64,000 nt of DNA. It comes from Octopus sinensis (Eukaryota). A program made the translations under genes and the position numbers. This document shows, in pieces, positions 1 to 59,440 of the stretch; positions within the stretch are counted from its first letter, which is position 1, and the number at the start of each line of letters is the position of its first letter. The notes beneath the pieces are model-generated. The model made no database searches. It worked only from the letters and a program-made list of their open reading frames with translations, and was not told the DNA's origin. Location of the stretch: assembly GCF_006345805.1 (NCBI RefSeq), contig NC_043019.1, positions 11,221,360-11,285,359 on the forward strand, given 5' to 3'.

Positions 1-751
1 GCCGACACAATTTCTTTGGATGCAGATCCATTGTCTGTTGAGACCAACAGATGCCTTTTACAGCAATAAATGGTGTTTCAACAATCTTGTCTTAAGAATT
101 AATATTATTACTTCTTTAATTAGTCTTAGCAATCAGTAGCACCGTGTAATCAATCAGGCTTATTACTTCATTGATTAGTAGTCTTAACAATCAATATTAT
201 CAATCAGTTTAAGGCAGTGAGCTGGCAGAATAATGCTGGCCAAAATGCTTGGCGGCATTTCGTCTGTCTTCATGTTCTGAGTTCAAATTCCACTGGGGTC
301 GACTTTGCCTTTCATCCTTTTGGGGTCAATGAAATAAATACCTGTTGAACACAGGAATCAATGTAATCAACTTGCCCCTCCCCCAAATTGCTGGCCTTGT
401 GCCAAAATTTGAAAGCGATGTTATTAATCAATTAGGATTATTATATCAGTAATTAGTCATAATGATGTTATTGCTTAATCAATCAGGATTATTATTTCGG
501 TGATTAGTCATCAGTTGGGATTAATAGTACAGCAGTTAGTTTTAACAGTCAACATTATTGTTTAATCAATTAAGATTGTTTAGCAATTTAATTTGTCTTA
601 CCAATCAATATTATTCACTCTTTAGAATTTAAACACAGCCCACACCTGGCCCAAAATATTCTATCTATTTTATGTTCAAAGGGGCCACATCTGGCCTCTC
701 ACACCTACCCTATAATGTTGTTTTAAAAATAAACAGTCACATCATAAAAAT

Positions 752-1163
752 TATGTGTAGTAGTGGTGCGCGCACACATTATTAGCCATTTGAAAAGACT
801 ATGGAATTTACAATTAACTGCACCAGGGTTCCTCTTCCCCAGGGAACCAGACCTAATGATATACCTGCGGATGTAGGTCCAGCCCCTGCTTTGCCAGGTC
901 CTGTCTCTGATCACGTTGCACCTCCAAGGGCATCCATTGACGGTGATGCCCTCAATCTTAACAGACGGGTATCACCTGATGGTGAAGAGTCAGCTCCCAA
1001 CCAAACAACACCAAACAAACACCCACTCTCTTACCCTGATGTAATCTCCAGGGATACAGGCATCCAGCAACAGGACCTCCGTAATGCCATGATGGACCAT
1101 GAAGTCTGGCGTAGCATGGTAAATTCCATTGTCTCGACCACGGTCGAACAATAATAATAATAA
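752..1163 (+). mobile_element. LINE remnant (RTE/Proto2-like C-terminus, (TAA)n tail) nested in a piggyBac-type MITE
   Basis: SYPDVISRDTGI...DLRNAMMDHEVWR* followed by (taa)n; MITE halves at about 617-751 and 1164-1265; ataaaaat on both sides. Confidence 0.65.
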
Positions 1164-1860
1164 ATAAAAATCTCAAAGCTGCAAGGTTATGCATGATTAA
1201 TTCCAAACATTTTTGAATAAATAAGCATTACGGTTAACGGAGAAATCTGAGTGCTAACGAGTTAAAGAAGTTTTTTGATGACTGGATAGATCTTCATATT
1301 TCTACAAGTCTTTTGGTTTCCTTGTTATAGGGGAAAATTCTTTATGATTCTGTTGTGTCTGGGGAGAGTCATTTTCTTTTTGTGCCTTATAATGTAACAC
1401 ACTCACTGGTAAAATTTCCACTTATTTCTTATTTTTATTTTCCTAAAATTCTTTATGATTAATATATTGCAACGTCTCTACAACTCTTTAGCATTGTAAC
1501 TTACCATATCCAGCTCAAATATTCTAGCTGTTTTATGTCAACACTGGTCAGATCCAGCCTCTCACACCTACCCTACAAAATCATTCTGAAAATACACTAT
1601 CACAACATCAAAATCTTGTTAACTTAAAACAATGCAAATAAATAAATAAATAGTTTGATTCCGACTGAACATCCTACTCTTTCGACTTGCATATCTGAAC
1701 CTCTTCCCGAACTTTCAGCACTTCTCCTCCTCCATATACCAGCATTCCACCCAGATTACCACTGGATCTACTGACTCTACTTTCACAGATTTCACTGGAT
1801 TTTTTCATTGAATAAATAAACATTACTTTTGAGAGAGTAGTCTGAATTCTAAAGGATTAA

Positions 1861-2080
1861 CCCTTTCGTTACTGTATTTATTTTGAGATGCTCTGTGTTT
1901 CTTTCAATTACTTTAAATATAACAAAGAATTTAGTAAAAGAACTTAGTTATCACAAAGCTAGTGTTAGGAACATTAATTGTGTCTAAGGTTTGGTGGAAG
2001 ATTTTAATTCAAAACTAATGAAAACAAGACATTTGTACTCAGAGCCAGAGCTGGTTTCAGCTGGGTTGGTATCAAAAGGG
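1861..2080. mobile_element. piggyBac-type MITE (second copy 2105-2325)
   Basis: TTAA|ccctttcgttac ... gtatcaaaaggg|TTAA. Confidence 0.8.
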
Positions 2081-4479
2081 TTAAAAATATCATGGTGACT
2101 TTAACCCTTTTGTTACCTTATTTCTATTGAGATACTCTGTGTTTCTTTCAATTAATTTTAAATATAACAAAGAATTTATTAAAATAACTTAGTTATCATT
2201 CATCTAGTGTTAGGAACATTAATTGTGTCTAAGGTTTGGTGGAAGATTTTAATTCAAAACTTATGAAAACAAGACATTTGTATTCAGAGCCAGACCCAGT
2301 TTCAGCTGGGTTGGTAACAAAAGGGTTATAGAAGTTTTCTTGACAATTGTAGAAGAATCTTCTTATTTCTACAAGTTTTTTGGTCTCGTTATAGGGAAAG
2401 ATTCTATTTGCTGCTAATATACTCCTACACCTCCTTGGTCATTTAGCATTTAATCTGGCCATATCTGGCTCAAATATTCTATTTATTTTATATTCAAACT
2501 GGCCAGATCCAGCCTCTTTGACCTACCTTACAAAGTCATTCTAAAAATAAACAATCACATCATCAAAAATCTTGAAGCTATGAGATAATGCACGATTAAT
2601 TGGAAACTATATGAATAAATAAGCATTACATTTGATGGAGTAATCTGAATGTTAAAGGGTCAATCAATATCAGCTGTCAGAGTTCTAGTAACGAGTGTCG
2701 GCTCTTTAGTAATAAGTATGGATGGCCTTAAGAGACATAATTATTGTCTGGGCCAGCCTTTTGTGTCCTGATTTCTGTTCCCCTGCCCTCCCATACCATC
2801 CATCCTATCACGAGATTTTTCACCTAACAAGAAATGGAACAGGGCCTTAGAGACCTAGGGCCCTGGTTGATGATGGGTAGGTCTTGAATACTAAATGGTA
2901 GTATGACGTTTCAATCAGAGCAACGTGCTGGTTGCATCTATGCATACTAAAGTGAGATAAAGTCTGGGACAAAAAACTTGTTGTAGTAGTAGTAGTAGTA
3001 GCTGCAGCAGTGGTTGTGGTGATGCCACTGCTTCTGTATAGAGGCAGTGTACTGTGGGACCCGATACCCTTGTTGCTAACCCTTTAAATTTTCCAAATAA
3101 GGTTTATTTGTTCCCATACATATCATCATCATCATCATCGGCGCAGGAGTGGCTGTGTGGTAAGTAGCTTGCTTACCAACCACATGGTTCCGGGTTCAGT
3201 CCCACTGTGAGACAACTTTGGTAAGTATCTCCTATCATAGCCCTGAGCCAGCCAAAACCTTGTGAGTGGATTTGGTTCATGGAAACTGAAAGAAGCATGT
3301 TGTGTGTGTGTCTTTTGTATGGTTTGGTGTCTCCTTGTATTGACATTATGTTATAGCTGTAAAATGATTGTCCCTGTCATACGAGTGGTGTCTTTCTGAC
3401 ACTGAGCAAGAATATGTCTTGCCATGGGGAAATATTACCTTGCTTGGAAACAGGTGAGGGTTGGTGACCGGGTGGGCATCCAGTCATAGAAAAATTTGCC
3501 TCAAATAAACTTCATCTGTCCCATGCAAGCATGGAGAACTGGATGTTGAGATGGTGTTGATGACAACAACAGTGAAGATGATGATGGTGACGATGATGGC
3601 AGTGATGATGATGATGACGATGGCAATGATAATGTTGCTGCTGGTTTCCATGAAAATTCTCTCTCTTCGTTTCACTCGCAAGGCATTGATTGGCCTGAGG
3701 TTACAGAATATAAGACACATGCCAACGAGCCCATGGTGCCACTTTGCAGGACAGAACCCTGTGTTTGTCCCCCCAACATCGCTTGACAACCGATGCTGGT
3801 GTGTTTACATCCCCGCAACTTAGCGGTTCAACAAAAAGAGACCGATAGAATAAGTTACTAGGCTTCCAAAGAATAAGTCCTGGGGGTTGATTTGCTCGAC
3901 TAAAGTTGGTGCTCCAGCATGGCCGCAGTCAAATGACAAAAACAAATAAAAGGTGGCAAGCCGGCAGAATCATTAGCATGCTGGACAAAATGCTTCGTGG
4001 AATTTCGTCCATCTCTACATTCTGAGTTCAATACCACATGGTCGCAAAGCGGTATTCTTAACCACCCAGCCATGCCTGCCCTCCCCAACTCCTCTAAGTA
4101 CCAGAATCAGTTTCATTATCACCTTGACCTTCCTTCTCTCACCAAAAATCTGGCCGTGTGCCAACGAGAAAAAAATCATTACTAATATATAATGGTACTT
4201 TGTACTTTAACAATTGTTGCTTTGCCGTGTGTGCGTGTGTGTCTTACTAATCTTACATGGCAATCGGTATTATCAACTTACCAATTATGACTACAAGTAC
4301 TGGGTGTAGGGGTATGTGCGTGTGTGTTGTTGTTGTTGTTTATTTTCTCAGTTGTGCATAGAAATGTAGCTTTAGGAATCTACTTCGGTGTCGTCTCTAT
4401 CTTCGCTATCGACAGCATTGCCATCGCAAGCATTGTATATCACCAGCAGCATGAACATTGCCAACATATCGATGCCACC

Positions 4480-5010
4480 ACCAGCATCATCACGACCAAT
4501 GCTGCCACCAACACAAACACCATAACTACCACCACCACCACCATCAACACTGCCACCAACACCATCGCCACCATCACCAACACAACCACCATCACCAATA
4601 TCACCATCAACACTGCCACCAACACCATCACCATCACCAACACCAACACAACCACCACCACCAACACCATCACCACCATCACCAAAACCATCAATACCAC
4701 CACCACCATCGCCAACACTACTAACACCACCACCAACACTACCACCATCACCCATACCACCACCACCATCACCAACACAACCACCATCACCAACACCATC
4801 ACCAACACCACCACCATCACCAACACAACCACCAACACCACCACCAACACCATCACCAACACCACCACCATCACCAACACAACCACCATCACCAACACCA
4901 CCACCACCACCATCACCACCAACACCATCACCACCAACACCAACACCACTACCATCACTAACATCATTGCCAACATCGTATGTCACCAACAATACCACCA
5001 CCACCATTAT
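4480..5010 (+). repeat. Degenerate (ACC/ATC/AAC)n trinucleotide satellite
   Basis: visible trinucleotide periodicity; a complementary (GGT/GTA) tract follows at 5140-5420. Confidence 0.9.
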
Positions 5011-5641
5011 ATAATACCATCAGCGCTAACATCACTACAACTACCATCACCACCACACCCTTGAGATAAAGATGATTCTCTAGAAAGATTAAAGCACTGA
5101 AATACCAAAGAATTCATTAAGAATGCTTGGATAGTTTTGTTAGTGTGTGGGGTGGTGGTAGCAGTGGTAGTAGTAGTGGTTGTGGTAGTGGTGGTAGTTG
5201 TGTGGTGTCATTGTAGTGGTATGGTTATTATAATAGTTGTGGTGGTGGTGATAGCAGTGGTATGATGGTGGTAGTGATAATGGTATGGTTATTGTAGCAG
5301 TAGTAGTAGTGATGGTCATGGTAGTGGTCTGCTTATTGTAGCAGCTGTGGTGGTGTTGACAGTACTGGTGGTGTGATGGTATGGCTGTTGGAGTGGTTGG
5401 GTGGGGGTGTTGTGATGGAAGGGAAAGTGAAGTTTTGGATTCTTTCAAGAAAATTTATGGAATTTGGCAATATTTTTACAGTTATTATCACGTGTTGTTG
5501 TTGAAGTTGGTAATTTTTTTTTGTGAGGTGGTGAAAATGGCAAAAGTAGTTTATATATGAATATATGTATATCTATATGTATGTATAGTAATAATAATAA
5601 TAATCCTTGGGTGGAATTTATTTGTATATATGTACATATAC

Positions 5642-6048
5642 AGGCGCTGGAGTGGCTGTGTGGTAAGTAGCTTGCTTACCAACTACATGGTTCTGGGTTC
5701 ATTCCCACTGCGTGGCACCTTGGGCAAGTGTCTTCTACTATAGCCTTGGGCCGACCAAAGCCTTTTGAGTGGATTTGGTAGACGGAAACTGAAAGAACCT
5801 GTTGTATATATATATATATATGTATGTATGTGTGTGAATATGTTTGTGTGTCTGTGTTTGTCCCCCAACATTGCTTGACAACCGATGCTGGTGTGTTTAC
5901 GTCCCCGTAACTTAGCGGTTCGGCAAAAGAGACCGATAGAATAAGTACTTGGCTTACAAAAGAATAAGTCCTGGGGGTCGATTTGCTCGGCTAAAGGCAG
6001 TGCTCCAGCATGGCCGCAGTCAAATGACTGAAACAAGTAAAAGAGTAA
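5642..6048 (+). mobile_element. tRNA-derived SINE, family A (most abundant), with central (TA)n(TG)n tract
   Basis: head ggcgcaggagtggctgtgtggtaag...ggttcagtccc; tail ggtgctccagcatggccgcagtcaaatgactgaaacaagtaaaagag; other + copies about 6325-6755, 17045-17410, 36251-36498, 38275-38712, 52978-53440. Confidence 0.9.
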
Positions 6049-7071
6049 TGTCCAGGCAAGGATACATACGTACTCATACATGCACACAAACGCATGCATG
6101 CATACATACATGATGGGCTTCTTTCACACATATATATACATACATAAATACAACAGGCTTCTTTCAGTTTCCATCTACCAAATCAACTCACAAGTCTTTG
6201 GTCGGCCTGAGGCTATAGCAGAAGACATCCCTGGTACTGCACAGCAGGCCTGAACCCCAAACCACTTGTTTGGAAAGCAAACTTGTTACCTACATATATA
6301 CACTCCTCTGCCTGTATATATTATAGGTGCAGGCATGGCTGTGTGGTAAGTAGCTTGTTTACCAACCACATGGTTCCGAGTTCAGTCCCACTGCGTGGCA
6401 CCTTGGGCAAGTGTCTTCTACTATAGCCTCGGGCCGACCAAAGCCTTGTGAGTTGATTTGGTAGAGGGAAACTGAAAGAAGCCTGTTGTATTTAATTATG
6501 TATATACATATATATATATATGTGTGTGTGTGTCTTTGTATCTGTGTTGTGTTCTACCCCTGACCCCTCAAACCATCACTTGACAACCAATGTCGGTGTT
6601 TAGATCCCCATAACTTAGCGGTTCAGCAAAAGAGACTGATAGAGTAAGTACTGGGCTTACAAAGAATGAATCCTGAGATCAATTTCTTTGACTAAAACCC
6701 TCAATGGCAGTGCTCCAGCATGGCCACAGTCATATGACTGAAACAATTAAAAGAATATATTTATATATATATATATAAAAGCTATAAGATAATGAGTGAT
6801 TAATTTAAAACAATGTGAATAAATAAACATTGTATTTGACAGTGTAATTAGTGCTAAAGGGCTAATCCACCTGTCTAATTAAATGCCTGTTTCTAACGAA
6901 GATGTAGTTGGCATATTCAACAATTGCCTGTTGATAGGCAATTCATGAGAATATTGCCCATGTGATCTACAGAATCTGATCAATCACAACTTCATGTTGA
7001 ATAAGCTCCAATGATGATCAGTTCTTTCGACATCCTTCCTTCTGAGCCTGTCGACCAGTATAAGTTCAGTA

Positions 7072-7484
7072 CTCTCTTTTACTCTTTTACTTGTTTCAGT
7101 CATTTGACTGTGGCCATGCTGGAGCACCGCCTTTAGTCGAGCAAATCGACCCCGGGACTTATTCTTTGTAAGCCCAGTACTTATTCTATCAGTCACTTTT
7201 GCCGAACCGCTAAGTGATGGGGACGTAGACACACCAGCATCGGTTGTCAAGCAATGCTAGGGGGACAAACACAGACACACAAACACACACACATATATAT
7301 ATATATAATATACATATATACGACAGGCTTCTTTCAGTTTCCGTCTACCAAATCCACTCACAAGGCATTGGTCGGCCCGGGGCAATAGCAGAAGACACTT
7401 ACCCAAGGTACCACGCAGTGGGACTGAACCCGGAACCATGTGGTTGGTTAGCAAGCTACTTACCACACAGCCACTCCTGCACCT
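7072..7484 (-). mobile_element. SINE family A, minus-strand copy
   Basis: reverse complement of family A; other - copies about 7955-8440, 15870-16325, 24935-25345, 34530-34885, 40181-40587, 45747-46182, 54142-54580, 61717-62134. Confidence 0.9.
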
Positions 7485-8530
7485 AGTACGTTGCGACTAC
7501 TTGACAAAGACCTTTGGGATGCAGCAGAGAGAGCTGAAAATACAAAAGCAATGAATAATAATTATTAATATACACACATGCATACATACATGCACATATG
7601 TTACATAACCATAGCTATCCACCACATGCTGGTACAGACATGTCCTCCGTCTCCTGCTAGAGATGGAGGACATGTCTACCAGGGCTTTACTCTCATTCTA
7701 TGCTGCAGCTGTGGGCTGGAAGAAGCTTTGTGGCAGACCCTGCACCAGATGACTGGGCATGATTGGGGAAGAGCTCCAGAGGCTTGACATCATCTTGGAG
7801 GATGCAGAGAGGCTGGTATGGGATCACAAGTGATGGGGAGCCCTGGTGGACCAAGCCAAGCCAAGCTTGCAAGCAACTAACAACACTTAATCTGCTGCTA
7901 CCATTTCACCAAGAACAAAATCTCTCTCAATGTTTTTTATGTGTTCTTTTATTCTTTCTTTTATTCCTTTACTTGTTTCAGTCATTTGACTGCGGCCTTG
8001 CTGGAGCACCGCCTTTAGTCAAACAAATCAACCCAGGGCTTATTCTTTGTAAGCCTAGTACTTATTCTATTGCTCCATTTTGCCAAACTGCTAAGTTACA
8101 GGGATGTAAACACACTGACATCGGTTGTCAAACAATGGTGGTGGTGGTGGGGGGGACAAACACAGACACACACACACACACATACATACATGTATTGTTG
8201 AAATTTACAGAAAAACGAAAGACGAAGACAGGTGTATAAACAACAAGCAGGTCTTTTATGTTTCAAGCCTGCGCTCTTCAACGGAAAGCAACACGAAGAA
8301 ATATATATACGATGGGCTTCTTTCAGTTTCCGTCTAACAAATCCACTCACAAGGCTTTTGTAGAAGTCACTTGCTCAAGGTTCCATGCAGTGGGACTGAA
8401 CCCAGAACCATGTGGTTCATAAACAAGCTACTTAGCACAAAATTTTTTTTTTATCAAAAATCTCAACAGACTCCAGTGTTCTTCATACAAAGATAATTAA
8501 GGTGTGTGTTTATCTCTTTGCTATTTCCAG

Positions 8531-8612
8531 TGTCAATGTCTCGATTTTGGGGTCTCGAGACCAACTTTGTATCCACAACCAGGTAAAGAAGGAGACCAGC
8601 AATGTGAATAAG
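8531..8612 (+). CDS. RTEL1: RTEL1 internal exon (82 nt): VNVSILGSRDQLCIHNQVKKETSNVNK, first Fe-S Cys
   Basis: ttccag| acceptor, AAG|gtaagg donor; matches the RTEL1 segment VLGSREQLCIHPEVKK; phase 0 join to the exon at 32067. Confidence 0.9.
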
Positions 8613-8764
8613 GTAAGGACCTTGCATCAGTTCATCTTCTGAAGTTGTATTAAAAGTTTTATCTGTAGGACTATCAAGTCTGATCGTATTAGTGTGGAAA
8701 AGTGTTGGAGTTTTCCACAATCACTTGTACACTTAATGTATTTCTCACATAGAATCACCATCAT

Positions 8765-8797
<33 letters not shown>

Positions 8798-8800
<3 letters not shown>

Positions 8801-9137
8801 AGATGTACTCGCATAGCAAGTGATTTGATCTGAGATCGTGTGCTGGAACGAAAGCAATTGCAGCGTGGAAGGTGTTCGTAAGCCATTTAAGAAACACACA
8901 AAAGCCGTTCGATTCACTTCAACATTTAAGTTTCATTTATCAAAATATTTTCGTCGCTTTAAGACCGCGACCTGTTCACTGACAAAAATCCGTGCAGCAC
9001 GGATTTTTGTCAGTGAACAGGTCGCAGTCTTAAAGCGACGAAAATATTTTGACAAATTAAACTTAAATGTTGAAGTGAATCGAACGGCTTTTGTGTGTTT
9101 CTTAAATGGCTTACAAACACCTTCCACGCTGCAATTG
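8798..9137. mobile_element. Inverted (fold-back) insertion in a (TA)n tract, probably a Penelope-like retroelement terminal-repeat pair
   Basis: 141-bp arms 8855-8995 and 8997-9137 around a single A, 4 mismatches; extra 57 bp on the left; (TA)n on both sides; hammerhead-like motif inside. Confidence 0.6.
9006..9056 (+). ncRNA. Candidate minimal type I hammerhead ribozyme, G3:C8 variant (mirror copy on - strand at 8936-8986)
   Basis: stem I tttgtca/tgacaaa; core GTGAACA plus extra G; stem II gtcgc/gcgac; GAAA; palindromic ATAT; UH = TT. Confidence 0.55.
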
Positions 9138-9167
9138 TATATATATATATAAGGTTTTCCAGAAGTA

Positions 9168-9680
9168 GAGGTGCATTGGCCCAGTGGTTAGGGCAGCGGA
9201 CTCGTGGTCGTAGGATCACTGTTTCAATTCCCAGACCGGGCGTTGTGAGTGTTTATTGAGTGAAAACACCTAAAGCTCCACGAGGCTCCGGCAGGGGGTG
9301 GTGGTGAACCCTGCTGTACTCTTTCGCCACAACTTTCTTTCACTCTTTCTTCCTGTTTCTGTTGTACCCGTATTTCAAAGGGCCAGCCTTGTCACACTCT
9401 GTGTCATGCTGAATCTCCCCGAGAACTACGTTAAGGGTACACGTGTCTGTGGAGTGCTCATCCACTTGCACTTTAATAAATGAGCTGTGACGTCATTGGT
9501 GCCAAGTTGTATCGGCCCCTTTGACTTTCCCTTGGATAACATCGGGTGCATGGAAAAGGGGCTGGTATGCATGGGTGACTACTGGTCTTCCATAAACAAA
9601 CTTGCCCAGACTTGTGCCTCGGAGGGTAACTTTCCTGATGCAATACCATGGTCAAACATGACCGAAGGGGGTCACAACAA
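9168..9680 (+). mobile_element. tRNA-headed SINE, family D (other copies about 30877-31188, 36071-36248, 50516-50675; diverged 12765-13045, 33600-33840)
   Basis: A box tggcccagtgg, B-box-like gtttcaattccc; 11-bp TSD ttccagaagta at 9157-9167 and 9681-9691. Confidence 0.8.
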
Positions 9681-10074
9681 TTCCAGAAGTAACAATTTCA
9701 GTAAAAACAGGCAATTTTTTAGAAACTCAATCTTATTTATGTTTTTCATGTTTAATATGTGTTAGAAGTGTTTCAGTTTTTAATTTTGTTTATAATTTTT
9801 TTTCAATAATTTTCTTTTCATTCCTGTTGGGTCCCACTTAGCTGTACATGACAGCTTTTTTTTTTTTTCAATTTAGCTGCAATCATTTCCTCTGTGTCTG
9901 TCCCCAGGATGGAGCAATAGTTTAGCTGAATGCATTCAATCAGTAATACAGGAGATAACTCCTGAAATGCTTCAAAATATTATATTAAGGATAGATTTTA
10001 AATTTTGCAGGGATACAGATGGAGGACATGTTGAAAAATTTCAATAAGGTTTTCATATAAGATTTATAAATCTA

Positions 10075-10603
10075 CTAGCAGTATCGCCCGGCGTTGCTTG
10101 GGTTTGTAAGGGAAATAACTATATAAGCATTTTTAGAGAGTTATAGCCAAAAAATGCATTAAAAATGGAATAAAAAATGATGGTAATTTTTTTTTTAAAT
10201 CGTTGACTCAGTGTCTTCAAGCCATAAAGTCGTTCTAAAAGAACGCTGGTCTCCTTGACAACGCTTTACGACGTTGATTTCCTTATACTCCCTCCCCCAC
10301 AGCTTCACGAGGGAGAGAAGAAGGGGGAGAAGCAAACAGGTGCAGGGGTGACCATGGACGCCAACTCCGCCGCCATCGACACACGAAAAAATATGCATTA
10401 AAATGGAATAAAAAATGATGTTAAATTATTTTTAAAATCGTAGACTCATCGTAGACGCGCGCTAATACTCAGACAGGCTCGATATGAATCACGACTATAA
10501 GATACCCGAATTTGATTAAACTGCACCGCAAAATGTGGGAGTAGTTAGGAATCTAAATCGAAGGGGACAGACACTCACACAACTACAGTTTTATATATAT
10601 AGA
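10075..10603 (-). mobile_element. Non-autonomous Helitron
   Basis: - strand starts A|TCTATATATATAAAA and ends with an imperfect GC hairpin (cccaagcaacgccggg) followed by CTAG|T; inserted at an AT dinucleotide, no TSD. Confidence 0.8.
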
Positions 10604-12187
10604 TTTGTTTTGGTATCACAATTAAATAATCAACATAAAATTCTGTCAGTTTTTTATAAAAGATTTGACTGATTTCATTGAAATAGTTAACTCTGAGACA
10701 CCCTGTCTATACTATGTAATATGGCTTTGTGTGTGTGTGTGTAGGTAGGTGCAGATGTGTGGTAAGAAGTTTGCTTTCCAACCATTTGCCTCTGAGTTCA
10801 GTCCCACTGGGTGGAACCCTGGGCAACTCTCTTTTACTGTATTCCAAGATTGGCCAAAGCCTTGTGAGTGGATTTGGTAGATGGAAACTGAAAGAAACCT
10901 TGCCAAATATTCACATATAACTCTGTGAAGTGGTTGGCATTAGGAAGGGAATACTGCCATAGAAACCATGCCAAAGCATAAACTGGTACTCGGCACAGCC
11001 TTCTGGCTCATCTGTTCGTGTTGAACTATCATCCGACCCTGCCCAGGGCTAAAAAAACGATGTTAAATGATAATATTGATGATGAAATACTCCTCTCAAC
11101 AATGCTTTGCCTTACCGAAGTTTCTAATAGAAGACACTTGCTGGAGTTTCCACTCAGTGGGATTGAAACTGGACCCATGGGATTGGAGAAGGAATTTCTT
11201 AACAGCGCAGCCATGCTTGTATCTATATTTGCACTCACTCAATACAACTTTACTGTATATATACAAATTACGAACTCCCTCATCTATGCAAACATGTATG
11301 CGTCATATGTGCACACACACATACACGCATGTCTGCGTGTGTTATATAGTGTGTGTGTATATATATGTGTGTGTATTTGTATATGTATATATGTTTATAT
11401 ATTTATATATACATTTGTGTGTGTATATTTATGTATATATGTGTGTATATATTTATATATACATTTGCGTGTGTATATTTATGTATATGTGTGTGTATTT
11501 GTATATATGTGTCTGTATTTGTATATGTATATATGTGTGTGTATTTGTATATGTATATATGTGTGTATTTGTGTATATATATATATGTATATATGTTTAT
11601 ATATTTATATATACATTTGTGTGTGTATATTTATGTATATATGTGTATATATTTATATATACATTTGCGTATGTATATTTATGTATATATGTGTGCGTAT
11701 TTATATATATATACATACACACACATGTACAAACATATACACATGTACAGAAACATTTATACACACACACACACACACACATACAAACACACCTATTCAC
11801 TCTAGTAGATGTGTATACATAGATGACAAACTACGCACATCTTCATCTCTCCAGTTGCTGCTGCAGATTTTCAAAAAGTCATCACCATAGAAACGCCAGC
11901 ATTTATCATTCTCTCTGTATTTCCTCCTCTGTGTCATTGACAGTGGTCGGTGCAGTCTGTTGCTGCTCATAGTACTCAGCTGCCCCAATATATCATTATA
12001 TATGCACATATGCAAGTACTATACACACATACACACATTTGTGTGTATGCAGATATACATGCACAGGCACACACACACACACACACGTGTGTATGCATAT
12101 ATATATGTGTGTGTGTGTGTGTGTATATCTGTGTGTGTGTGTATATATATGTCTGTGTATATATATATATATATCTGTGTGTGTGTG

Positions 12188-12322: not shown

Positions 12323-12391
12323 GCCGAAATAGCTCAGTTGGGAGAGAGTTAGACTGAAGATGTAAAGGTCCCTGGTTCCCTGGTTTGGGCA
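12323..12391 (+). pseudogene. tRNA-Phe(GAA) retro-pseudogene followed by trailer, LINE-type tail and poly(A) (to about 12480)
   Basis: gccgaaatagctcagttgggagag..ttagactgaaga..taaaggtccctggttc follows the canonical eukaryotic tRNA-Phe; 4-nt T-loop deletion and stem mismatches. Confidence 0.85.
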
Positions 12392-57384: not shown

Positions 57385-59440
57385 TTATACTCACTCCCAC
57401 ATTCTCTTACACTCACCCCCACATTGTCTTACACTCACCTTCACATTTCCCTTATACTCACCCTCACATTCTCTTACACTCACCTTCACATTCTCTTACA
57501 CTCACCCCCACATTCTCTTACACTCACCCCCACATTCTCTTACACTCACCCCCACATTCTCTTACACTCACCCCCCACATTCTCTTATACTCACCCCACA
57601 TTCTCTTATACTCACCCCACATTCTCTTACACTCACCCCCACATTCTCTTACACTCACCCCCACATTATCTTACACTCACCTTCACATTTCCCTTATACT
57701 CACTCTCACATTTCCCTTATACTCACTCTCACATTTCCCTTATACTCACTCTCACATTCTCTTACACTCACCCCCACATTCTCTTACACTCACCCCCACA
57801 TTCTCTTACACTCACCCCCACATTCTCTTACACTCACCCCCACATTCTCTTATACTCACCCCACATTCTCTTACCTCACCCCCCATTCTCTTACACTCAC
57901 CCCACCCCCAACATTCTCTTACACTCACCCCCACCATTCTCTTACACTCACCCCCACATTCTCTTACACTCACCCCACATTCTCTTACATCACCCCCACA
58001 TTCTCTTACACTCACCCCCACATTCTCTTACACTCACCCCCACATTATCTTACACTCACCTTCACATTTCCCTTATACTCACCCTCACATTCTCTTACAC
58101 TCACCTTCACATTCTCTTACACTCACCTTCACATTTCCCTTATACACACCTTCACATTTCCCTTACACTCACTCTCACATTTCCCTTATACTCACTCTCA
58201 CATTCTCTTACACTCACCCCCACATTCTCTTACACTCACCCCACATTCTCTTACACTCACCCCCACATTATCTTACACTCACCTTCACATTTCCCTTATA
58301 CTCACCCTCACATTCTCTTACACTCACCTTCACATTTCCCTTATACTCACCCTCACATTCTCTTATACTCACCCTCACATTCTCTTACACTCACCTTTAC
58401 ATTTCCCTTATACTCACTCTCACATTCTCTTACACTCACCCCCACATTCTCTTACACTCACCTTCACATTTCCCTTATACTCACCCTCACATTCTCTTAC
58501 ACTCACCTTCACATTTCCCTTATACTCACCCTCACATTCTCTTATACTCACCCTCACATTCTCTTACACTCACCTTTACATTTCCCTTATACTCACTCTC
58601 ACATTCTCTTATACTCACCCTCACATTCTCTTACACTCACCTTTACATTTCCCTTATACTCACTCTCACATTCTCTTACACTCACCCCCACATTCCCTTA
58701 CACTCACCTTCACATTTCCCTTATACTCACCCTCACATTCTCTTACACTCACCTTCACATTTCCCTTATACTCACTCTCACATTCTCTTACGCTCACCCC
58801 CACATTTTCTTACACTCACCTTCACATTTCCCTCATACTCACCCTCACATTCTCTTACACTCACCTTCACATTTCCCTTATACTCACTCTCACATTCTCT
58901 TACGCTCACCCCCACATTTTCTTACACTCACCTTCACATTTCCCTCATACTCACCCTCACATTCTCTTACACTCACCTTCACATTTCCCTTATACTCACT
59001 CTCACATTCTCTTACGCTCACCCCCACATTTTCTTACACTCACCTTCACATTTCCCTCATACTCACCCTCACATTCTCTTACACTCACCTTCACATTTCC
59101 CTTATACTCACTCTCACATTCTCTTACGCTCACCCCCACATTTTCTTACACTCACCTTCACATTTCCCTTACACTCACCACCACATTGTCTTACACTCAC
59201 CTTCACATTTCCCTTATACTCACCCTCACATTCTCTTACACTCACCTTCACATTTCCCTTACACTCACCCCCACATTCTCTTACACTCACCCCACATTCT
59301 CTTGCACTCACCTTCACATTTCCCTCATACTCACCCCCACATTCTCTTACACTCACCCTCACATTCTCTTACACTCACCCCCACATTCTCTTACACTCAC
59401 CTTCACATTTCCCTTATACTCACTCTCACATTCTCTTGCA
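57385..59440 (+). repeat. ~21-bp C-rich minisatellite, about 2 kb
   Basis: unit cacattctcttacactcaccc and variants (ttcacatttcccttatactcac). Confidence 0.95.

Follow-up and report, generated by a model that had tools for sequence, protein, structure and literature searches.

A Penelope-like element in an Octopus sinensis intron carries a minimal hammerhead motif with a flipped 3:8 base pair

Hammerhead ribozymes of Penelope-like elements

In the hammerhead ribozyme, the base pair between nucleotides 3 and 8 positions the catalytic 2'-OH, and its G3:C8 form is the classic rescue mutant by which the pair was proven. The motif described here harbors this form in a natural sequence, a 64,000-nucleotide stretch of the Octopus sinensis genome referred to below as the window. 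The closest described systems are the minimal hammerheads within the pLTRs of Penelope-like retroelements, or PLEs (Cervera and de la Pena 2014, PMC4209133). As in the octopus motif, these hammerheads are of type I, with an unpaired nucleotide that separates 9 from 10.1, a G10.1-C11.1 pair, GAAA, a tiny palindromic stem III and an NUH cleavage site; they reside in the pLTR, are found in thousands of truncated copies, and include pairs of motifs on opposite strands, described there at distances of 100-700 bp. The octopus motif differs in its core, which is GUGANCA, and in its extra nucleotide, which is G here whereas the published consensus is H.

Compensatory changes at 3:8 are also known in nature. 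The U3-A8 variants (Perreault 2011, PMC3088659), which include those of the Schistosoma Cercyon PLEs, represent such a change, but in the octopus motif the purine and pyrimidine sides are exchanged, so that C occupies the site that contributes its 2'-OH to catalysis. The same base pair as in the octopus was engineered, as C3G/G8C, into the hammerhead of the anole Poseidon element PAc (Frangieh 2024, PMC11167929), a system that also shares the PLE context and a tail ascribed to two reverse transcription start sites. However, the anole mutant is a laboratory construct with partial rescue, whereas in the octopus the pair is a natural, fixed, high-copy state; furthermore, the anole tail measures 30-40 bp rather than 57 nt, and the cut lies downstream of the likely ATG rather than upstream of it. 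At the level of the whole element, the nearest counterparts are the PLEs with a C-terminal endonuclease (EN), Neptune and Nematis (Craig 2021, PMC8557442), which resemble the octopus element in the order of the reverse transcriptase (RT) and a GIY-YIG domain with CCHH, in a CxxxCxxC linker, in their (TA)n bias and in the presence of an inverted 5' copy. Unlike them, the octopus element has an insert of about 133 amino acids between RT motifs A and B, and inserts of this size, that of the IFD, are ascribed there mainly to PLEs with an N-terminal EN.

The minimal PLE hammerheads, their extra nucleotide, the UUU triplet and the opposite-strand pairs are therefore all in print (PMC4209133), as is natural U3:A8 (PMC3088659). 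The octopus core appears not to be. A hand count of the 56 rows in the PMC4209133 alignment gives 53 CUGA, 3 UUGA and no GUGA, the descriptors used there having required those cores, and no GUGA core is found in the 34 rows of File S2 of Craig (PMC8557442), whose descriptors could not have caught one. G3:C8 was found in the full-text literature only as an engineered laboratory mutant, in a search whose scope excluded Lünse 2017 and Perreault 2011 figures and supplements. Passages of an Octopus vulgaris repeat annotation (PMC13282606) name Penelope-like families and do not contain the word ribozyme, and portions of bioRxiv 10.64898/2026.07.22.740005 and PMC10085705 hold nothing bearing on the swap. 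The expectation that searches with CUGANGA would miss the motif is supported, and descriptor-based ribozyme surveys should admit all Watson-Crick 3:8 pairs.

The insertion and its element

The locus lies within the gene of a DEAD_2 iron-sulfur helicase, and comprises the following features, given in window coordinates.

8531..8612, + strand: host exon of 82 nt, bounded by AG..GT, from a DEAD_2 (XPD/FANCJ/RTEL1/DDX11-type) helicase gene (Pfam DEAD_2, E 4e-5; splice signals)
8768..8797, no strand: (TA)15 microsatellite adjoining the 3' end of the element, its likely insertion target
8798..8995, - strand: direct PLE copy, the last 198 nt (3' part of the pLTR plus tail), 5'-truncated; top copies are 95-97% identical, and longer copies are joined upstream to an RT and GIY-YIG ORF
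8798..8854, - strand: PLE tail of 57 nt, missing from the inverted copy and containing the ATG (8814-8812) that probably opens the element's ORF
8997..9137, + strand: inverted copy of the pLTR end, 141 nt, without tail
9138..9152, no strand: (TA)n run that borders the insertion on its opposite side
35691-35795 and 35964-36035, + strand: two downstream DEAD_2 exon matches of the same host gene (E 6e-7 and 1.3)

Positions 8798-9137 constitute a PLE insertion that is truncated at its 5' end and starts 186 nt into the intron following exon 8531-8612. This exon, the peptide of which may be RTEL1-like, lies within a segment (8528-8614) that two contigs from probable-RNA runs match without differences, and beyond this segment the contigs differ from the genome (window positions 1-11300 were compared). 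This strand also has DEAD_2 exons at about 35691-36035 and upstream of the window; with exons on either side, the element is intronic, as the first-pass annotation had stated. The locus is an ordinary retroelement fragment within an intron. To the right of the insertion, at about 9165-9700, is a high-copy repeat with a tRNA-like head, probably a tRNA-derived SINE as judged by eye and from its high contig depth.

The palindrome extends beyond the coordinates first reported for it (8936..9056). Its arms, at 8855-8995 and 8997-9137, are each 141 nt long with four mismatches between them, and the left arm runs 57 nt further, to 8798. A direct copy joined to an inverted 5' copy, a tail at one end and a (TA)n bias are all described features of PLEs (PMC8557442), and the tail has been ascribed to two RT start sites (PMC11167929). 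By extension from other PLEs, reverse transcription from two start sites 57 nt apart would generate one tailed copy and one tailless inverted copy. Where the tail begins, at 8836-8860 on the minus strand and shortly upstream of the likely ATG, a pyrimidine tract and the AG after it resemble a 3' splice site; Penelope itself has an intron in its 5' UTR (PMC8557442).

The 198-nt arm has 1292 candidate copies in the 2.7-Gb genome, 40 scored examples of which, the window's own copy aside, are 95-97% identical to it. Judged by this closeness to its nearest relatives, the insertion is an unremarkable recent copy. The copies of the family have fixed 3' ends and variable 5' ends, and many consist of one arm only. 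Their 3' ends are bimodal, with 98 of the 185 distinct matches in the examined loci ending at arm position 190-198 and 56 at 136-146; (TA)3 comes next in 62 of the 98 full ends and 42 of the 56 short ends, and the tail is 56-57 nt long across copies. The architecture of a pLTR is seen, with 5' truncation, an inverted 5' copy, an optional tail and partial tandems. Longer copies continue upstream via a microsatellite-rich 3' region into an ORF, and at the other end the 57-nt tail of two copies (L125 and L127) passes straight into the ORF, translation from the tail ATG joining the reading frame of a further copy, L123.

These copies bear directly on the possibility that a MITE, a foldback DNA element or a miRNA-like hairpin underlies the palindrome, which would then be hammerhead-like by chance. 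Such a reading accounts for a long near-perfect inverted repeat between TA runs, and the best Rfam matches are indeed miRNA hairpin models, below threshold. However, the arms are unequal, many copies have a single arm, and a variable 5' break point is set against fixed 3' ends; moreover, the motif covaries across families whose flanks cannot be aligned. The longer copies run into an RT and GIY-YIG ORF, and with this linkage the MITE or foldback reading is already refuted and was rejected. In total, a chance hammerhead in such an element is scarcely credible.

The element is a PLE with a telomerase-like RT and a GIY-YIG domain. Open frames of about 715-1042 amino acids are found in several copies, and although the family ORF has no significant match in Pfam and no sequence match in the PDB, the three best Foldseek matches in the PDB to its structural model (pLDDT 88.5) are telomerase RTs (E 9e-8 to 5e-7), at low TM-scores of 0.32-0.37. 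Pfam RVT_1 is matched weakly in a sister family (E 0.002) and not in the window's family. At the C-terminus, the translation contains a VY..YIG motif with flanking C, C, H and H, and a relative, P0118, matches Pfam GIY-YIG at E 7e-7. In the window's family and its sister alike, the CxxxCxxC linker precedes the EN. RT motifs A and B are separated by about 133 amino acids (P0001 residues 165-298; L123 ORF), and by 131-136 in 75 relatives. This insert is of the size of the telomerase IFD, in a clade with a C-terminal EN, and the element possibly belongs to an undescribed PLE subclade. Its affiliation with Neptune and Nematis is tentative and suggested by the linker, the spacing of which is Nematis-like by eye. 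The linkage to an RT and GIY-YIG ORF for which the first-pass annotation had suggested looking is therefore present, and the G3:C8 motif lies about 1 kb behind the ORF in 10 of 12 ORF-bearing loci of the family, as located with a descriptor that required a 3:8 pair. No relative was found in the viral contigs scanned, and a genome search with a distant protein returned only the window's family and the sister family.

The motif and its 3:8 pair

Each arm of the palindrome holds one hammerhead motif.

9006..9056, + strand: motif of the inverted copy, running in the sense of the host pre-mRNA; G3 is 9013 and C8 is 9018, with a predicted cut after 9049
8936..8986, - strand: motif in the element-sense copy; G3 is 8979, with a predicted cut between 8943 and 8942

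On the plus strand, stem I consists of 7 bp (9006-9012 with 9050-9056), and the core GTGAACA (9013-9019) is followed by an extra G at 9020. Stem II is formed between 9021-9025 and 9035-9039, after which come GAAA (9040-9043), ATAT (9044-9047) and TT (9048-9049). The mirror copy on the minus strand differs in that one stem I G-C pair becomes G-U, through the arm difference at 8939. N3-U4-G5-A6-N7-N8-A9, G12-A13-A14, A15.1-U16.1 and H17 are all present, but literal CUGANGA is not, on account of G3 and C8. The elements and coordinates given in the first-pass annotation, mirror copy included, were recovered throughout, and its reading of a minimal type I hammerhead holds, with the core, GAAA, A15.1-U16.1, H17 and the G10.1-C11.1 pair of stem II in place; its cleavage position after 9049 is likewise supported as a prediction. 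Three of its other suggestions need to be revised. The extra G had been regarded as a possible defect in activity, as had the UUU triplet; however, an extra nucleotide between 9 and 10.1 is conserved in PLE hammerheads and UUU is present in a published oyster PLE motif (PMC4209133), so that with precedent for both neither is a special defect. The motif is also not a divergent ribozyme family, but rather a core variant within the known PLE hammerheads.

The minimum-energy fold of the 51-nt plus-strand motif contains stems I and II (-13.0 kcal/mol, z -2.2). The minus-strand copy folds similarly (-11.9 kcal/mol), and the opposite strands fold less well. When a relaxed hammerhead descriptor is run over both strands of the 64-kb window it finds exactly 2 sites, whereas 30 block shuffles average 0.07, although these two represent a single observation because they are one duplicated sequence. 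No Rfam hammerhead model is matched, either at the gathering score or at E<=10. The same is true of 5 relatives, four of which have a canonical core, and the Rfam score is consequently uninformative on the swap.

The G3:C8 pair is close to fixation in the window's family. One context pattern has 4443 matches in the genome, of which 4070 have G3:C8, 259 keep G3 but not C8, and 114 are without G3; the first 100 listed of these 114 include no C3:G8 subfamily. Variants that are shared within the family fall in loop II and the flanks and none falls in the core or stem II, in a sample that was partly pattern-selected. In the sister family, which was found by protein similarity at about 56% identity, a descriptor that left positions 3, 8 and 9 free locates the motif in 23 of 25 ORF loci, and every one of the 23 is C3:G8. 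All 23 (L103:5586-5638 and 22 further ORF loci) also have C9 in place of the conserved A9, while other sister-family copies keep A9. The equivalent of stem III in this family has A-U and G-C around a non-palindromic AA. A pattern for motifs without G3 has 3527 matches, among them subfamilies whose core is the fully canonical CUGANGA as well as a third family, for which one copy sits behind a PLE ORF that has decayed. A further pattern returns 32 older G3:C8 motifs with diverse loop II sequences, whose mutual identity downstream is 58-70% in the three compared. In an old heterogeneous G3:C8 set (L202-L231), loop III is 2 nt long and stem II gains a sixth pair, and no ORF was detected within 1.5 kb.

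Between the window's family and the C3:G8 families, the 100 nt downstream are identical at 0.46-0.55, against 0.50-0.52 when shuffled, whereas 16-18 of the 22 positions of the core and stem II agree. Only the 3:8 pair and stem II were counted for covariation, because MAFFT leaves stems I and III out of register across lineages. In 51 aligned motifs, hand-picked from pattern matches and mostly collected with patterns that fixed the core and the other four stem II pairs, the 3:8 pair is G-C in 37, C-G in 12 and U-G in 2 and is never unpaired, while stem II pair 4 is G-C in 28, A-U in 14, G-U in 6 and unpaired in 3; each counted change probably represents one evolutionary event. The differing stem I sequences of relatives still pair over 3-5 bp, some of them bulged, as seen without a stem I register in the alignment.

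More distant relatives come from metagenomes. A descriptor with positions 3, 8 and 9 free was applied to 44 of 80 loci, the weakly matching rest being left out, and gave 5 motifs. Each is on the same strand as the ORF, lies 103-136 nt behind the ORF match and has the extra G. Three are C:G and two U:A, and shuffles give 0-2 matches (mean 0.6). The 21 loci with DNA behind the ORF include 7 with a motif found by script, 6 with one found by eye (four near-identical, one decayed) and 8 with none, and G3:C8 is not found among the motifs of these 21. U3:A8 is present in 4 relatives, and in one metagenome relative (L263) it is accompanied by C9. Stem II pairs other than pair 4 all change among the metagenome relatives. 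The 17-row tree, which is midpoint-rooted and holds unnamed relatives only, groups the window's family with the sister family at 88/99, below the starred threshold, and puts G:C on one tip; the direction of change is a deduction from it.

As the 3:8 pair and stem II covary while the flanks are at the level of shuffled sequence, G3:C8 is a real compensatory exchange, and the minimal type I hammerhead around it is conserved. The first-pass annotation had proposed such a swap, and C3:G8 in sister families, the 3:8 covariation and near-fixation at 4070/4443 bear it out; the stem II covariation for which it suggested looking is found as G-C and A-U at pair 4 within the genome and at the other pairs among metagenome relatives. 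An unrelated repeat family also contains a canonical CUGACGA minimal hammerhead, at L137:7496 on the plus strand, and a similar sequence follows the element in L030.

Predicted cleavage and its extent

We consider it probable that the palindrome is a truncated PLE insertion and that its motif is the conserved minimal type I hammerhead of the element with the 3:8 pair flipped to G3:C8, which is likely to cleave slowly, as a dimer or with the help of protein, in tandem full-length transcripts, and which is predicted to be inert at this locus. Biochemical work on other hammerheads bears on the rate. A G8C change slows cleavage by about 1e5-fold and C3G restores it only in part (PMC8495972); the double mutant is also partially rescued in vitro in another study (PMC3884650), and again in the anole PLE hammerhead, where cleavage needs the element's protein (PMC11167929). 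In view of this partial rescue, slow self-cleavage is plausible for the octopus family, and on our analysis fairly probable. Activity would be lowered rather than abolished, as the swap leaves position 8 its 2'-OH and preserves Watson-Crick pairing at 3:8. By analogy with other PLE hammerheads (PMC4209133; PMC6765202), a tandem pLTR-ORF transcript would be cut after U17, a site that lies 129 nt upstream of the likely ATG, to give unit-length RNA. Two motifs would complete stem III between them via the AATATT palindrome, or the element's protein would stabilize it, as it does in the anole element (PMC11167929). AATATT is palindromic, and the stem III duplex is marginal at -0.2 kcal/mol; a longer 10-nt palindrome could mispair the core, at -3.8 kcal/mol. 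The counter-points to this explanation are that the swap is one evolutionary event, that the sister family was amplified with C9, that 259 copies have G3 without C8, and that 8 of the 21 metagenome loci have no motif.

At the locus, the first-pass annotation had called the two copies paired and had named dimers as the presumed mode of cleavage of such hammerheads; a functional dimer of the two is not supported. They lie on opposite strands, such that one transcript contains one sense motif and its complement, the antisense arm coming first on either strand. The two arms are predicted to form a 141-bp hairpin of -242.8 kcal/mol in which the pairing probability of stem II is about 1e-20. On opposite strands and within such a hairpin the two motifs cannot be dimer partners, and an intramolecular dimer was rejected. 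With the ribozyme stems negligible at equilibrium, the model predicts that this copy is inert.

A hammerhead homologue that has lost useful cleavage is also conceivable, the fold with its Watson-Crick 3:8 pair having been kept for another job such as RT binding or template positioning, or surviving as a nearly silent relic. The incomplete rescue of G8C by C3G (PMC8495972) would suit this explanation, as would the C9 of the sister family. Mutating the hammerhead of the anole element does not impair its insertion in vitro, for which cleavage was found dispensable, and reads that end at the cut site are absent (PMC11167929); Cervera and de la Pena allow for "functions other than self-cleavage" (PMC4209133).

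Copies with a broken 3:8 pair form a further point in its favor. Of the 259 copies with G3 and a base other than C at 8, about 41 of the first 100 listed are unpaired G3/G8 by hand count. In a small unselected sample, C8-to-G changes are seen in 4 of 110, in comparison with 7 C<->G changes in 4136 at other non-CpG C/G sites; C8-to-G is about as common as C-to-T and roughly 20x background, and it occurs repeatedly in single arms of inverted pairs. A source clade of G3/G8 copies was considered and rejected, because in 5 inspected loci the partner arms carry C8 and the copies are therefore not a clade, which itself speaks against a non-cleaving homologue. The excess may reflect either a hot spot or selection for uncut templates. 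Set against loss of cleavage is also the occurrence of three different Watson-Crick pairs at 3:8 across families that retain UGA and GAAA while their flanks are at chance, which is the pattern expected under selection for an active-site fold. We therefore regard a hammerhead that has ceased to cleave usefully as unlikely, and favor the slowly cleaving ribozyme.

The broader proposition is more tentative. This would be a natural, long-lived hammerhead lineage that runs on the flipped G3:C8 pair, comprising the young family, with its more than 4000 copies, and G3:C8 families of the same genome that are older and heterogeneous, with deliberately low cleavage dependent on protein or dimerization, beside a sister attenuated by C9, and it would form a class of PLE ribozymes that surveys with CUGANGA and UUGANAA missed. 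We hold this to be possible but doubtful. If it is true, some of the PLEs reported as ribozyme-less are perhaps among those missed, and the excess of unpaired G3/G8 marks templates that escaped cleavage. A fixed G3:C8 family beside C3:G8, U3:A8 and C9 sisters provides a ready series on how far Penelope elements need ribozyme activity.

Finally, the host helicase gene could have put this copy to use, either to cut its pre-mRNA with an intronic ribozyme or to regulate it through a dsRNA hairpin. It is intronic, lies 186 nt from the 5' splice site, has one motif in host sense and would form a very stable hairpin. Nevertheless, it looks like an ordinary young copy at 95-97% identity to its nearest relatives, 4 sites distinguish its arms, and sequestration of the sense motif is predicted, all of which make co-option very improbable.

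Elsewhere in the window, Rfam tRNA matches are found on the plus strand at 12323-12391 (34 bits, degenerate) and 34345-34417 (59.6 bits), and a C/T-rich tandem array of 2 kb with a 21-22-nt unit occupies 57389-59437.
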